Below, piece after piece: positions 50,670 through 57,687 of a stretch of DNA of 64,000 nucleotides. Origin of the DNA: Massalongia carnosa (Eukaryota). The stretch lies in contig OZ287069.1 of NCBI GenBank assembly GCA_965645245.1, forward strand, positions 682,001 through 746,000, written 5' to 3'. Numbering within the stretch: position 1 is the stretch's first letter; every line of letters starts with the position of its first letter. Under the pieces are notes generated by a model, which saw nothing but the letters and a program-made list of their open reading frames with translations, did no database searches and was not told the DNA's origin. Position numbers and translations under genes: made by a program.

Positions 50670-52242
50670 ATGGACGAGTTTACAGCGGATACCTTTGTGA
50701 ATCGGGACGAGCCCATCCCAGCCATCTCTGTCTTAGGCAACGATGGTACACCATCTGATTCGGAGAGCAAACGCGAGAGACTGAGAAAGAACCTTTCAAG
50801 CTCGAAGCTTAAGGAAAAGCTTCAACATGTTGGGGCGGGCAAGACTGACTCGGGATCCTCCATACAGGACCGCCTATTCGCCAAGTGAGCAATGTCACGC
50901 CTGATGATATCATGGGAACTGAAACCCTTCGTAGACTTCTACAGCAGGTCATTCCTAACGAAGACATCACAGAGGTCTTGGAAACCCCAGATAAGCGATC
51001 TTCCAAGTATCTTGGCCGTCCTAGTTTCAGCCTTCCCCTCATGACCAATAACTTCAGGCGTTTCAATGCAAGGTAGTCTCTTGATATGCCATTATAAATT
51101 CGTCTATTGACGTCTATGGCAGGATTGGAGTGGTTTTTATATATCAGAACCGTTTGATACGCCTGCTATCTTGGAAAACCCCTTCACATACTCTCTCCCT
51201 ACTCGCAGTAGCGACGTTTGTCTGCCTAGACCCTTTCTTGCTTGCTGTTGTCCCAATCGTTGTAGCTCTGCTTTTCATTATGGTCCCAGCCTTTCTTGTC
51301 CGTCATCCACCGCCTCCATCCTTCGTTTCGCACACACCGTCATACTCGATAAACGGACCTCCCCTGGCGCCTCCTCGGATGATCAAGCCAGCTTCAGAGA
51401 CGTCAAAAGATTTCTTCCGCAACATGCGGGATCTGCAGAACAGTATGGATGATTTTAGCATCATTCACGATGCGATCTTGAAAGCCGTCACTCCGCTCAC
51501 AAATTTTTCGAATGAGCCCCTCTCCTCCACCTTGTTCCTCTTCATGTTCGCTGCAGCATGCATGCTCTTTATCTCGTCCCATCTCCTTCCTTGGCGATTT
51601 GTAAGTCTTATCCTCTGCTGGTCGGCCATCGTTCTGGGTCACCCGAAGGTTCATAATCTCCTCGTGGCAAATCGCGAAGAGCATCTGAAGCCGCGTGAGC
51701 GTGCGGCACAAAGCTGGCTGGAGAGTTGGATATCACAAGACATCATCCTCGACGCCCCAGCAGAGACGAGGGAAGTTGAAATATTCGAGCTACAGCGCCG
51801 AAAGGGCGGGCGCAACGGAGAATGGGAGCCGTGGATCTTCAGCCCCTCGCCTTACGATCCGTTATCACCTCAACGGATCTCTGGCGATCGACCGAAAGGG
51901 GCTACATTCTTCGAAGATGTTGAGCCACCTGGCGGGTGGGAATGGGGAGAGAAGAAGTGGATGCTGGATCTCGGGAGCAAGGAGTGGGTCGAGGAGCGGA
52001 TGGTGCAAGGGGTCGAGGTGGAGATTGAAGGGGAAAGGTGGGTGGTAGATCTAGTGCCCGAAAGAGCCGTGGACGATGCCGGCAATGAAGGGGCTTATGG
52101 AAAGGGCAAGGAGCAAAAACGGGACCGGGAAGAGGGCAATAGCGTCAGCGTACCTGGAGATTGGAGACGACGGCGATGGATCCGAACGGTGCGGCGAAAG
52201 GTTCTTGGTCGGCGAGAGGCGACGCCGTCCAAGAGCGAATAG
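50670..52242 (+). CDS. PEX29: Peroxisomal integral membrane peroxin, Pex24/28/29 family (dysferlin-like C-terminus)
   Basis: SIQDRLFAK, RPSFSLPLMTNNFRRFNAR-IG, SKDFFRNMRDLQNSMDDFS, REVEIFELQ, GDWRRRRWIRTVRRK; 2 introns. Confidence 0.85.
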
Positions 52243-52306: not shown

Positions 52307-53127
52307 CTATAAACTCCGCGCCGTGCCCGCCGTTCCATCCGCAACGGCCCTACCCCCACCATCCCTCCACCGCTTCACCCTCCGTCTCAAATCACCCTCC
52401 GTCTGCTGCCCCGGATTCAACCGTCGATCCCTCACCATCCCCCTAAAATCATCCCCCCACCTCCCCACTAACCTCGCAATCCACTCCTCCTCCCGTCGGC
52501 TCTGCATCCTCGGCCTCTTCTGCCCGCCCCCCGCCCGCGCCGCAGCTTCCAACTCCGCCACTATCCCCTCCCCCTTCCCTTCCGTAAGTGTTCCCGCTCT
52601 CCAGTCCACCGGGTCCGCCTTCTCCTCGGAGCCATCCACCGCGTTTAGTAAATCGTTCAGTGGGTTCGGCGCACCGGTGGACAAGGATGGTGGCGGCGAG
52701 GGGTGAATCACGCTTGTGATAGCGCCGGTTTTGGGATGGCGAACTATGCGCGCGGTGCTAGGGAAGAGGGTTTTGATGGTAGGGGCTTGCGGGGTTATGG
52801 AGAGGGGATCTTTCCTTATGGGGGTGGCCGCGCTGGGGCTAGGTTCAGTGCCGCCGGCGTGGGCGTTGAGCTTGGAGGTTAGGCCTAGGCGGGCGTAGTT
52901 TTGGGAGAGGGTTTGGGAGGCGACCCTGGTTGGTTTGGAGGTTTGAGGAGGTGAAGAAGGCGAGTTTTTGGAATGGGGGAAAGGAGTGGGAGGGGAGGGA
53001 GATTTTGGACTCACCAGTTGGCAGCGACGATGGGGTTGCTGCGGACGTTGACACGTTTAGATCTTGGTTTTTGATGTACTTTAGGAAGGGAGGATCTGTT
53101 CTTCTTTTTCTGCAGCACACGACCCAT
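52307..53127 (-). CDS. NOP16: Nucleolar protein 16
   Basis: MGRVLQKKKNRSS...NPIVAANW, intron, TLSQNYARLGLTSKLN...QSRREEEWIARLVGRWGDDFRGMVRDRRLNPGQQTEGDLRRR. Confidence 0.9.
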
Positions 53128-53311
53128 GATGGTATTTTTCCTGCTTCAGGAATGCGGTGGATTGTGGGAAAGATACCTCGTAGCTTGGTGGCGTTTTAGG
53201 GCTGCAGTAGTTAGTTCGGACTGCTTCTCACTAGTAGTTACCCCTTGGCGCGCCTTGCGGATGAACACACGACACGTTGCTTTACGCTTCCTTCTCCGCT
53301 ACCAAGGCAAC
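53128..53311. promoter_or_regulatory. Probable bidirectional promoter between NOP16 and YKE4
   Basis: Only about 184 nt between the divergent ATGs. Confidence 0.55.
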
Positions 53312-55256
53312 ATGGCACGAAGTCGCACACGATGGCATCCGCCGTGGCTGTACCTGCTCGTTGTATCGATAGCACTGATTGTGCAACATGTTGCCGCTAA
53401 AAAAGAACCCATCGTTGATGTAGCACGTATGAGTGTGCTCGAAATTGAGGATGCCCTTCAGGTATGTATAACATGCCCGCTTCCATTTCCGCTTTAAAGG
53501 TGTCAGGGAAGTGAGGATATGGTTCCAATTGACCGGTTCTAGCAATGCCCACTTATTCGGGATCTGAATCGTCATCGTGCAGCATCGAATCCCCAAACCT
53601 CAGGGCTTACGTCCCAGGTTTTCGCGTTTCTGTTTCCGGGAAGCCCGGCTATCAACGCGCTTCTAGCAACCTTGTATATCTCCGGACCACCCAGTCAGTC
53701 AGGTCCCTTCTTGTTTGTTTAACGATGACTTTACTGTAGGAACTGATCGACCTGTAGACTTTCTTCTCGCGCTATGTCCCCCCAACATCGACCCTTCCTC
53801 GCTCTCCGTCATGGTTGCGTTCGCCGTCGGGGGTCTGCTAGGAGACACTATCTTCCACCTTCTCCCTGAGATCTTTCTTGGCGAGGCCTCGCCTGAGGAA
53901 GCGCGCTTTGTTCTCGTGGAGCCGAATAAGAATCTTCTCCTTGGAGTCGCAATCTTGTTGGGATTTGTGACTTTTGTCGCCATGGATAAAGGGCTGCGGA
54001 TCGCAACAGGCGGTGAAGGCGGGCACGAGCATAGCCACGGCAAGAAGAGCGAAGTCTTGGAGCCAGAAAAAGACGCGGCTACCAGCGCAAAGACCAGTGG
54101 GGCCACCTCCGACCTCTCAACAAACACTCTCAAGTCCCGAAAGCCCGGCAGTTCTTCCGCCACCACGAAAATCCCACCTCCCCCATCAAAAATCCTTCAG
54201 GAAATCCTTGCTCATGAAGAACCCTTGCGCTCCGAGCGCTGGCTCCGCGCTGTGGTGGAAGAAGACGCCAGCAGCGACATCACTCAAATTGTCCTTTGGC
54301 AAGCTTACCAGTCGCACCTCAAAACAGGCCTCCTTCCCGCGTCCAACTTCATCAAAAATATCATCGGCATCTTCCCCAGCGCCGAAGCTCAAACAATCGG
54401 CACCCCCGAGGGCAAGGGGGGAAGTGGGACTAAATATATCATAAAGGGCATTCGACCACGCTTCTACTCCTCAACCCCATCGGTTCCCTCTTCTCCGCCC
54501 ATTTCTACTCCAGGGAACCCTTCTCCCTCAATTCGCCTATCCGCTTACCTAAACCTCATCGCCGACTTCACCCACAACATAACCGACGGCCTTGCGCTCG
54601 CCTCCTCCTTCCACGCCTCCCCGACCCTGGGGGCCACTACGGCCGTCGCCGTCTTCTTCCACGAAATCCCTCACGAAGTCGGCGATTTCGCCCTCTTGAT
54701 CCAATCCGGCTTCTCCAAGCGCCGGGCCATGGGCGCGCAGTTCGTGACAGCGCTGGGCGCGTTTCTGGGCACGGGCTTGGGCATCGCGGTGCAGAGTTTT
54801 GGAGGTGGAGGTGGAGGTGGAGATGGGGATGGGGAAATGAGGGCGTGGAAAGGGTTGGCGGGCACGGGGCTCGGGTGGGGGGATCTGTTGCTGCCGTTTA
54901 CGGCGGGGACGTTCTTGTATGTCGGCACTGTGGCCGTCATCCCGGAACTGTTGGAGACGGGCCCGGATAGGAGGCACGAGGTGAGAAAGACGGCGAAGCA
55001 GTTCGTTGCCATGGCTTTGGGGGCGGGGATTATGCTGGGGTGAGTCATCAGTCCAATTCTGTCTTGTGTGTTTTTTGTATCCTTCCAACTCCCCCCATTC
55101 CCTTACCCCTCCCGCTCTCAACCCCCTTTATCCCCTGCCTACCTGCCTGCCTGCTTGCGAGTCCCTGTGACATCCACGCAAGCAAGTAAACAATGAATAA
55201 TCTCAATACTAACATCCGCAATCCTTGGCCCTCACAACAGGATCTCCTGGTCATAA
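53312..55256 (+). CDS. YKE4: ER ZIP-family zinc transporter (Yke4/ZIP7-like) with an inserted winged-helix-like domain
   Basis: Signal peptide; LATLYISGPPNFLL, MVAFAVGGLLGDTIFHLLPE, GHEHSHG, YLNLIADFTHNITDGLA, FFHEIPHEVGDFALL, PFTAGTFLYVGTV; last exon GISWS* ends at 55256. Confidence 0.92.
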
Positions 55257-56444
55257 CAGGGACGCGGGGGTGCTGCTTTTATCTCTGCAGTCTGTTTTCG
55301 GTGCAGATCTCTCCATCGACCTACCTACCTATCTTCCTTCCTTCCTCGCTCGAGCGGGCGGGCGGGATCGTCTGTTTACGATCCGATAACCACCGCTTTT
55401 CCCTCCAAGCCCGAACCTCGGGTATGGAAAACCTGCGGGGAAAGGGGGAGGAAGAGACCGCTCGGTGCTATGTAGTAGAACATGTATCCTAGATACATAC
55501 ATACATACATACCTGCACGGCTCATGCTATTTAAAAAAAAACCAAAAAAAATCAAAAAAGAAGAAAAAACAAAGAATGGCGCATTTACATACAGGCACGA
55601 GGTGAACCCCCTTTTATTTTCCCCCAAACCCCATCCTTTCTTTCCATCCTCTTTCTGTCTACATCCAGACAGCAGATCAGATCCAACCAAACTAGTCGGT
55701 TAAAGTATCGTCCCACTCCTCCATCTCCACAGATATCTCCACCACAGAATCTCCACCCCTCCTTCTCCTATGTTTTTCTTTCTTTCCTGTTCTCATTTTA
55801 AAATAAATTTAAAGTTTTTCTCCATCTCTTCGCCCTGTCTCCCTCCTTCTGCTATCTTTCCCCCCTTTTCTCCCTTTCGTTGGTGGGGGGGAAATGATGG
55901 AAAAGTGTCAACGAACACATATAGACTTATACATACACACGTAGCTGCCTGCGCCCCTCCAATTTTCTCAATTCTTCAATTCTTCAACCCTAAATACCTA
56001 GGAATCCCTGGCCTTCTGCCCCCGTGCTGTGAAATTTCGAACAGAACTAATTTTGCTCAAGCTCGGCGGATCGAATAGCCATGTTATGTGTGCGAGTTTC
56101 CATGTGAGTTTCCATGCCTTGGTAGAGTTACCTAACTGAACGAGGGAAGGATGGGAGGGGAAATGTCACTTGGCTGCAAGACGAAAATCACGCCTACGAA
56201 GAGGAGAGAAGGTCTCAAAATAGCAGAAAAGCTGGCTTTGTTCGGAATAAATCATCCCGAAGAACAGCGAATGCTCAAAAAGCCCAACTACCAGACTTTT
56301 CCAAAGCAAGACGCATCGACTTCAAATTCCTTTTCCTCCGAAGGCTTACCTCAAAGCACCGCATCAAGACCCGATCGGGTGCTGACGAGTGCAACAACAA
56401 GAAAAATGCTGCCCTAGAGGATTCCTGGTCTACCGAATGGGGTC

Positions 56445-57687
56445 CTACATGAACGAATTTACCAAAGCCAACATTCCCCCACCAAAAAATAACCCGCTTG
56501 CTCCGGTGGCGCGGTTGGCGTTTGAAAATGGGGCAATCGCTGGGCTTGTCGACTTTAGCGGTCTCACCCCAGTCCCGGCTGGCGTGCTTGCGAGTGATGT
56601 GGTATTGTACCTGAGAGAACCACGGATATCGTTGCCTTTCTTCAAAGGAGGATTGTCGATGTTAGCGTTATCGACAATGATAGGGACCACGGGAGTTTCT
56701 ACGGGACCGTAAGAGACTGGCGATTCATGGTTGGGAGAGACTGGGGCAGATGTGAAAATGCGCGCGAATGGATCAAGGCTGGCATGAAGAACGCCACTGC
56801 TATTGTAAGCGCTAGAGAATTCGGGTACGATACTGGTAGGAGTAATAGAAGCCCGAGTTCCCGGAATGGCGATCTTAGTGCCGGCGATGTACGATGTGTA
56901 ACCAAGCGGAACAACAGGTATGATACTGCTTGTGGACTGTGCGCTGAGGTTGCCGGTGGGCTGCGTGTTGACCACGGACGTACTGATGTTTTTGACAGGC
57001 TGAGTACCGAGCAGAGATACGGTAATATTACCCGTGGAAAGGGTGGTGGCGCTTGAGGATGTCGCCGTGGTAGCAAGGGAGGGAATTGGGAAAGGGCTGC
57101 CATGGGCAGGGTAGACAATTCCATTGAAGGTACAAGCAGCGTCACCGGCGATAGGTGAAGATTGATAACCTGGAGGTCTTTTTGTCAGCTCATTGGAAAA
57201 CTGAGAGCGTATGTTCGCCTCCAGACAATCGAAACCCTTGGGGTCTCGACGGAAAGCTACAGGTGAAAGAGAAACAAGCTTACATGGTGCGAATGTTTTT
57301 ACCCCAACAGGCGGGATACCGGCAAGACTGCAGCAACTGTTAGCGGGCAGTTCAACATGTAGGTCCATGTGACGGCTAACTTGTCATTGCAATTCCCTGG
57401 CTGACCTACGATCCCATTGCAACGGATGATGATGTTGGTGGCCAAAGAATCACCTGCGCAGAAAGCGAGGGGGAAAGCGCCTTTTGGAGGAGAACAGACG
57501 AAGGTGTTAGTAGTAGGATCGCTGTTGAGATAGGATCAGCGGTGAGCCAGGCGTATGGATTCGAGACGAGGCAATAGGTGAAAGCAGCAGTTGGAGGTGG
57601 AGGGAGGAAAGCAACTCACAAGACAGCCTGCGCGCCTACCAGTGCGGCAGAGGTGGACAGGATGGAAGCAAGAGTGAAGAGCTTCAT
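56445..57687 (-). CDS. Secreted Cys-rich N-domain plus Ser/Thr-rich, probably GPI-anchored protein (4 exons)
   Basis: MKLFTLASILSTSAALVGAQA signal; FCAGDSLATNIIIRC..GQPGNCNDNLAG...CYQSS..GDAAC; hydrophobic GPI-type tail. Confidence 0.8.

Follow-up and report, generated by a model that had tools for sequence, protein, structure and literature searches.

Inspection of a 64,000-nucleotide stretch of the Massalongia carnosa genome (assembly GCA_965645245.1, contig OZ287069.1, positions 682,001 to 746,000 of the forward strand; hereafter the window) revealed a gene for a ZIP family transporter similar to Yke4 and ZIP7. It carries an RFX-type winged-helix domain related to that of the chromatin remodeller subunit Rsc9. 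The gene occupies positions 53312-55256 of the plus strand, in four exons that encode a product of 532 amino acids, and the domain lies in the loop between transmembrane helices (TM) 3 and 4. Its features are, in window coordinates:

53312..53461, plus strand: exon 1, with the start codon and a signal-like N-terminus; GT/AG borders.
53543..53693, plus strand: exon 2 (QCPLIRDLN...ATLYISGPP), holding TM1, from the fitted gene model and the orthologues P0003 and P0022.
53758..55039, plus strand: exon 3, holding TM2-TM8 and the entire loop with the insert in a single unbroken frame, from the open reading frame, Pfam and the helices predicted by AlphaFold2 (AF2).
54021..54041, plus strand: His box GHEHSHG, which opens the TM3-TM4 loop, read in translation.
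54042..54158, plus strand: left linker, poorly conserved (identity 0.34) and predicted to be disordered (predicted local distance difference test score, pLDDT, below 50 for residues 85-132).
54159..54464, plus strand: captured segment with homology to the RFX region of Rsc9, from BLASTP, phmmer against the PDB and a clean gap in insert-free homologues.
54186..54458, plus strand: predicted folded RFX-type winged helix (helix, helix, strand, helix, helix, hairpin wing), from AF2, Foldseek and VIA-align.
54465..54527, plus strand: right linker, Ser/Pro-rich and poorly conserved (identity 0.25; pLDDT below 50 for residues 239-251).
54528..54578, plus strand: beginning of TM4, where the metal-site motif SIRLSAYLNLIADFTHN hardly varies among 121 orthologues.
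54660..54689, plus strand: TM5 motif HEIPHEVGDF, intact, and invariant in the same 121 orthologues.
55241..55256, plus strand: exon 4, the final residues ISWS and the stop codon; the C-terminus is the same in P0003 and P0022.

The reading frame at 53667-55043 of the plus strand is open throughout. Translated from 53760, it gives GHEHSHG, a Ser/Thr-rich stretch, the insert, SIRLSAYLNLIADFTHN and HEIPHEVGDF. The exon junctions, ISGPPN/FLLALCPP and IMLG/ISWS, agree with full-length orthologues, and the joined product reads ISGPPNFLLALCPP and IMLGISWS-stop at its junctions, exactly as in P0003 and P0022. The exon-3 product matched the Pfam ZIP family (PF02535) over residues 10-426 with 190.1 bits (gathering cut-off 35.1; E 7.7e-56). 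The AF2 model of this product has helices at residues 12-39 and 55-82 and, after the loop, at 256-286, 288-315, 320-348, 373-398 and 404-426. Since TM1 is encoded by exon 2, this helix order places the insert between the third and the fourth membrane helices.

The LIV-1 subgroup of ZIP transporters, with ZIP7 and Yke4, is defined by the TM5 motif HEXPHEXGD and by a TM4 metal site of the form H-N..D-G. The TM5 motif of the window protein is of this form, and so is the TM4 site, which reads DFTHNITDG at 54561-54587; both are intact, as the first-pass annotation of this DNA had stated. The His box residues H89, H91 and H93 are at least 90% conserved in the 121 orthologues. The source records of close insert-free homologues call them 'zinc transporter YKE4', 'KE4' or 'zinc transporter 7', names that are annotations and not the result of a tree. 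Judged by its sequence, the gene is a Yke4/ZIP7-type zinc transporter of a lichen-forming lecanoromycete.

The captured segment comprises about 100 in-frame codons, approximately residues 134-235 of the exon-3 product, between GHEHSHG and TM4. Positions 54165-54476 translate to TKIPPPPSKILQEILAHEEPLRSERWLRAVVEEDASSDITQIVLWQAYQSHLKTGLLPASNFIKNIIGIFPSAEAQTIGTPEGKGGSGTKYIIKGIRPRFYSST, and these 104 amino acids were used as a phmmer query against all PDB sequences, of which three distinct ones were matched. The best match was 23cp_R, a 763-residue 'putative chromatin structure-remodeling complex protein' (residues 374-472, E 3.7e-14), followed by Saccharomyces cerevisiae Rsc9 (6k15_M, residues 375-477, E 6.9e-12). 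RFX5 matched weakly (E 0.0024), and the DNA-binding domain (DBD) of RFX1 gave no sequence match up to E 10. In a protein atlas the nearest cluster was that of RFX DBDs (score 0.90), which serves as a lead only. BLASTP of the insert region (residues 127-241) against L008, an Rsc9 orthologue from a metagenome, gave 59 identities in 121 positions (49%, E 1e-27). The likeness to L008 begins at about residue 134 (ATTKI) and ends directly after GIRPR; only the winged helix and its N-terminal helix therefore appear to have been copied. The window protein holds the ZIP domain and the insert, with no ARID domain, armadillo repeats or C2H2 finger, and is thus not a member of the Rsc9 family but a transporter with one Rsc9 domain. 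A tblastn search of the 64-kb window with the insert returned just the insert itself.

When the insert was modelled alone with AF2, using an alignment of 121 sequences, a pLDDT of 88.7 was obtained and the elements followed in the order helix, helix, strand, helix, helix, beta hairpin. Foldseek searches of the PDB with this model returned RFX5 (E 3.7e-5) and the RFX1 DBD (E 8.8e-4), both with a TM-score of 0.80 on the target, and no other PDB chain below E 0.2. VIA-align gave Z 12.2 for RFX5, with a root-mean-square deviation (rmsd) of 2.1 over 81 residues, and Z 10.1 for the RFX1 DBD (rmsd 1.5 over 73 residues), the next chain reaching Z 7.1. Within the exon-3 model no part is predicted better than the domain (pLDDT 95-97). 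The insert is thus predicted with high confidence to fold as an RFX-type winged helix held on two disordered linkers. The first-pass annotation had proposed that an RFX winged helix of the Rsc9 type lies in frame between TM3 and TM4 of a transporter like Yke4 and ZIP7; the open frame, the profile search and the fold comparison all bear this out.

The conservation of the protein follows the same division. Mean pairwise identity among the 121 orthologues reaches 0.83-0.94 in the membrane cores, compared with 0.55 in the domain and with 0.34 and 0.25 in the left and right linkers. Five residues of the insert are invariant (E154, R157, Q176, Y183 and G230), and P155, W161, W180, A182, I198, A208 and P233 are at least 90% conserved. 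The ratio of nonsynonymous to synonymous substitution rates (dN/dS) was estimated from metagenome loci, comparing L069 or L075 with L076. Over 83 domain codons it was 0.063-0.069 at a dS of 0.76. For the same loci the linkers gave 0.14-0.25 (0.25 in the left one), the N-terminal core 0.06-0.08 and the C-terminal part 0.035. Purifying selection on the insert is, by these estimates, about as strong as on the transporter core, contrary to the neutral evolution that the first-pass annotation had named as a refuting condition. A further loop, ahead of the last two membrane helices, is variable among the orthologues (mean identity 0.46); it holds a run at 54793-54840 that encodes GGGGGGGDGDGE.

The architecture is not peculiar to this assembly. 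All 120 closest homologues listed carry the insert at the same place, with identities of 31-60% and E values of at most 1.8e-13. Contigs from three runs of one study, maybe of the window's own source sample, span positions 53250-55300 with zero differences, and a 222-base contig of a second study crosses the left junction (54028-54249). Four runs yielded contigs, of unspecified kind, that have no joints at the gene; the stretch at 54793-54840 was treated as a repeat in this mapping. Furthermore, the metagenome loci L069, L072, L075 and L076 share the ZIP-RFX architecture, and in L069, L072 and L075 a Pex24 gene adjoins the transporter as well, in the opposite orientation to that in the window.

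The upstream neighbours in the window are a gene for a Pex24p-type peroxisomal membrane peroxin (51085-52242, plus strand, Pfam E 3e-75) and one for the ribosome biogenesis protein Nop16 (52307-53056, minus strand, Pfam E 9.2e-43), each read as a single open frame. In L069, L072 and L075 the Pex24 gene lies at approximately positions 1-912 of the minus strand, directly upstream of the transporter and on the opposite strand. Unlike in the window, no Nop16 match was found between the two genes at these loci. This difference in layout indicates local rearrangement between lineages. Just downstream of the transporter stop a (TACA)n microsatellite is followed by an A-rich tract (55495-55575), presumably 3' untranslated or intergenic. 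Further on, a 312-residue open frame rich in Ser, Thr and Pro (56445-57383, minus strand) matched no Pfam family at E 0.01.

Six of the carriers have organism names, and all six are lichen fungi: Pseudocyphellaria, Psora, Bacidia, Letharia, Alectoria and Lecanora. By lineage look-up Pseudocyphellaria belongs to the Peltigerales and Psora and Bacidia to the Lecanorales; Letharia, Alectoria and Lecanora we take to be Lecanorales too. The fusion is visible in public protein records, one source flagging the RFX domain automatically, and UniRef already names the Letharia lupina protein 'RFX-type winged-helix domain-containing'. Among 150 representatives of transporter clusters at 50% identity, two have the insert, namely the carriers' own cluster and one fragment.

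A search from the insert-free protein of Blastenia crenularia (Teloschistales) listed 120 proteins, four of them known carriers. The insert profile was absent from all 116 remaining Yke4 homologues listed, up to E 10, and the alignment shows a clean gap in the insert-free proteins exactly at the position of the domain. The 116 include 23 records of Blastenia and related genera, presumably all Teloschistaceae. They also include Lasallia (Umbilicariomycetidae), Agyrium (Ostropomycetidae), Stictis and Icmadophila, and many Dothideomycetes, Eurotiomycetes and Leotiomycetes. Insert-free proteins 65-84% identical to that of Blastenia carry the names YKE4, KE4 or zinc transporter 7. The insert is retained by Psora testacea, whose locus tag is styled like those of the Blastenia group; this suggests the same annotation project, so that the absence is unlikely to reflect a gene-calling habit. 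None of the 120 proteins listed is an insert-free copy from a carrier genus. This suggests, weakly, that the carriers have no YKE4 orthologue besides the insert-bearing gene.

Whether the absence in the Blastenia group is original or secondary was addressed with a tree of the ZIP core, comprising 48 of the 121 insert-bearing sequences, 21 of the Blastenia group, four other Lecanoromycetes and 11 outgroups. The nodes bearing on gain versus later loss form an unresolved polytomy. A tree that holds the 48 carriers together was 3.25 log-likelihood units better and was not rejected (p of the approximately unbiased, AU, test 0.61), so that a single gain, with the Blastenia group standing outside, is compatible with the gene tree. 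In published multi-locus trees the Teloschistales stand nearer to the Lecanorales than the Peltigerales do, which would imply loss.

The likely donor of the domain was sought in metagenome contigs, which were scanned with an alignment of the inserts only. A word-indexed search for the insert region in longer proteins had given 67 candidates of which none scored, a shortcoming of the word filter in view of what the metagenome scan yielded. Eighty loci were kept, and the domain lies in a non-ZIP gene at 76 of these, the other four being the ZIP-RFX genes. The long open frames at L001 and L008 align with 23cp_R along some 600 residues (E 1.6e-123 and 6.5e-130, respectively), and both find yeast Rsc9 at about 1e-30; these are the only two non-ZIP frames compared in this way. 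An ARID domain was found in L035, L068 and L071, out of eight non-ZIP frames scanned with Pfam. By these matches, the non-ZIP genes that were checked are RSC9 orthologues. Rsc9 loci and ZIP-RFX loci occur on different contigs of the same assemblies, so an intact RSC9 gene coexists with the copy. The Rsc9 domain of L071 reads the same as 23cp_R over the aligned stretch; that metagenome therefore contains the organism of the solved structure or one very closely related to it. Some RSC9 genes of fungi (L052, L053, L061, L064, L079 and L080) apparently have an intron in the RFX coding region right after EPERS..W, a site that is uninterrupted in the RSC9 genes nearest to the insert.

The domain trees leave out these six loci, owing to an intron or stops inside the domain, and identical sequences were collapsed. 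A quick tree of 172 domains had the ZIP inserts on one side of a branch (support 76). A more careful tree of 80 sequences comprised 32 of the 121 inserts and 48 of the 51 Rsc9 domains, L046, L063 and L077 having been dropped for their long branches. Here 35 Rsc9 sequences of other fungi fell on one side of a branch (support 90/94, present in 91% of bootstrap trees), and the inserts hence group with 11 Rsc9 sequences (the L001-L023 group). Of the inserts, 29 of 32 form one clade (100/100). A single capture is challenged by the inserts of P0034, P0068 and P0113, which fall among the Rsc9 sequences with weak support and on a long branch. A single clade of all inserts was not rejected (AU p 0.336), and with these three placed as they are a single capture is not shown outright. 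Their placement could be due to fast evolution or to a second capture. The three inserts have branches of 0.65-0.85 changes per column, and in the core tree their transporters are grouped in a separate clade (98).

These comparisons show that a copy of the RFX winged helix entered the TM3-TM4 loop in an ancestor of at least the Peltigerales and Lecanorales. The evidence favours a single, ancient capture within the genome, with the resident RSC9 of this fungal lineage as its source, two captures being possible. The first-pass annotation had likewise derived the domain from an RSC9 copy, which agrees with the trees and with the 49% identity to L008; the capture is not confined to this genome, the insertion being old and present in both orders. 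It had also suggested that similar flanks of the insert are a footprint of the insertion. The second flank matches the first only with three mismatches, and 224 such matches occur in the window against 186 expected from shuffled sequence, so that this likeness is at chance level. No footprint would be expected of a capture that is old and common to Peltigerales and Lecanorales.

In its transporter part the protein has the ZIP domain and eight-helix layout of the LIV-1-type ZIPs of the endoplasmic reticulum (ER), namely Yke4 of S. cerevisiae, ZIP7 (SLC39A7), Catsup and IAR1. These transporters also share with it the His box after TM3, DFTHN..DG in TM4 and HEIPHEVGDF in TM5. The TM3-TM4 loop of known members is short or of low complexity and rich in His and Ser, whereas in the window protein two linkers enclose a predicted folded domain of some 90 residues. 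With the RFX domains of Rsc9 in yeast RSC and ARID2 in human PBAF, the insert shares EP.R, WL, Q, W.AY, I, A.AQ and the hairpin II.G..PR. According to the structural literature, the Rsc9 winged helix is likewise a flexibly attached module on a larger body. Unlike in Rsc9 and ARID2, the domain sits in a membrane protein and not in a nuclear complex, and only the winged helix was copied. The DBDs of RFX1-8 and fungal Rfx1 (PF02257) have the same fold with weak sequence similarity, and their basic run ahead of the wing is lost in the insert, where ARRLGGRG of RFX5 aligns with QTIGTPEG. The searchable full texts, which cover few subscription journals, held no paper on a Yke4/RFX fusion, on a winged helix in a lichen zinc transporter or on RFX in Lecanoromycetes.

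The physiological role of the insert was considered in the light of the positions that it has kept. With a threshold of 80%, Rsc9 and the inserts have 19 conserved positions in common; seven others are conserved in the inserts only and 18 in Rsc9 only, the last being relaxed in the ZIP copies. The shared positions lie mostly in the fold core and in the hairpin K-F/Y-I-I-K-G-V/I-R-P-R. The Rsc9-only positions cluster in T40-Q46 and in the helix F62-S67 (including T40, Q46, F62, N65, V66 and S67), and this helix, near-invariant in Rsc9 as AAEFIKNVS, is relaxed in most ZIP copies. Because the helix is relaxed while the fold core and basic hairpin are kept, the domain probably no longer serves quite the function that it had in Rsc9. 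The inserts, 121 in number, have a median net charge of -1 (range -6 to +5), against +1 for the 51 Rsc9 domains; being near neutral, neither group looks like strongly basic DNA binders.

According to one published account (PMC7949119), the TM3-TM4 loop of LIV-1 ZIPs is cytosolic, binds zinc and carries sorting motifs, that of ZIP7 holds CK2 sites that open the transporter, and ZIPs including ZIP7 form homodimers. Yeast Yke4 is described in another as the ER homologue of ZIP7 (PMC5666860). By homology with LIV-1 ZIPs and ZIP7, the loop of the window protein would face the cytosol and be regulatory. The domain would therefore be displayed, flexibly tethered, at the cytosolic face of the ER or outer nuclear membrane, and homodimers would carry two copies per transporter. 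By analogy, we lean somewhat towards the insert being a docking or regulatory module of the transporter loop. It may bind a macromolecular partner, either a protein or nucleic acid without sequence specificity, and such binding could control the activity, position or turnover of the transporter. A folded element would thus have been added to a loop that ZIP7 and ZIP4 regulate by phosphorylation, zinc binding and sorting signals.

Several observations weigh against this interpretation, either in its docking role or in the steps leading to it. The docking role itself is proposed by analogy, and the conserved basic hairpin would equally suit DNA binding. The Pfam RFX model (PF02257) gave the insert 14.1 bits (E 0.075), short of the cut-off of 27; Rsc9 orthologues also stay below it, with 26.6 bits for L010, 17.4 bits for L021 and no match for L001 and L008. 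The exon-3 model is poor overall (pLDDT 65.5, predicted TM-score 0.38) and uninformative about contacts between domain and transporter. The dN/dS values come from three related metagenome loci, that is, from two comparisons that are not independent. The presence of the insert in the mature mRNA is deduced from conservation and dN/dS.

The most serious alternative, which we still consider unlikely, is that the insert has kept the role of the Rsc9/ARID2 RFX domain as a membrane-tethered DNA or chromatin binder, which either ties the transporter to chromatin or reaches the nucleus after cleavage. The fold is that of DNA-bound RFX domains, the hairpin equivalent to the wing is the best-kept motif of both inserts and Rsc9, and the long disordered stretches that flank the domain could give it reach or permit its cleavage. 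In the literature consulted, the Rsc9/ARID2 RFX domain is tentatively placed in a flexible 'tail' or DNA-interaction density of RSC and PBAF. Its contact with extranucleosomal DNA is proposed there, not shown, so that DNA binding of the Rsc9 domain itself is no firmer than this. A net charge near zero or negative and the relaxation, in most inserts, of the helix that is strict in Rsc9 speak mildly against an unchanged role, and the basic run of RFX5 is replaced. No cleavage site, nuclear localisation signal or inner-nuclear-membrane signal came to light, though no search was aimed at them.

Membrane-tethered transcription regulators such as SREBP, Spt23/Mga2 and ATF6 carry their DNA-binding part at a terminus, from which a single cut frees it. 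The insert would resemble them in placing a fold of nucleic-acid-binding type at the cytosolic face of the ER, a placement deduced by homology. It differs in being internal to a polytopic transporter, and two cuts would be needed for its release. A more speculative variant, which we regard as improbable, is that the transporter-borne domain still recognises the ligand of the Rsc9 RFX domain, be it extranucleosomal DNA or an RSC partner, and acts as a zinc-dependent decoy or signal to chromatin remodelling. Whether it stays at the ER or nuclear envelope or is released by cutting of both linkers, it might report the zinc status of the ER. If true, this would be a direct link from metal to chromatin that arose in lichen-forming Lecanoromycetidae.

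It is very improbable that the insert lies outside the working protein, either spliced out as an exonic intron or tolerated as a functionless passenger. Two in-frame GT...AG pairs do flank the domain in the window (54097 or 54151 to 54513), and a donor of consensus type, GTGAGT, occurs in the left linker of the related loci L069 and L075. The candidate donors of the window, GTGGGG and GTTCTT, are non-consensus, and as neither the window nor L076 has a consensus splice donor around the domain, no splice signal is conserved. A whole order, that of Blastenia and relatives, does without the insert, which speaks for this reading. Its dN/dS of 0.06-0.07 and its invariant core residues argue, on the other hand, for selection on the encoded protein, and the gene models of six named species, made by different annotators, all retain it.

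An assembly chimera joining a ZIP gene to RSC9, against which the first-pass annotation had already asked for long reads across both junctions, is refuted: independent runs gave 9.6-kb contigs that contain the entire gene and show no difference, a contig of a second study bridges the left junction, and the 120 homologues, from many sources, and the four metagenome loci, three with Pex24 alongside, share the architecture.

The reading of the insert as a docking or regulatory module concerns a loop that is unstructured and rich in His and Ser in the ZIP members studied elsewhere. Here it bears, throughout a clade, a predicted folded domain taken from a chromatin remodeller and under strong selection. 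The gene is a naturally occurring example of a domain inserted into a polytopic transporter, with the donor gene identified, and the insert may serve as a clade marker for part of the Lecanoromycetidae. It also offers a way to learn what the little-understood RFX domain of Rsc9 and ARID2 is able to bind, as the module is here open to study outside its megadalton complex.

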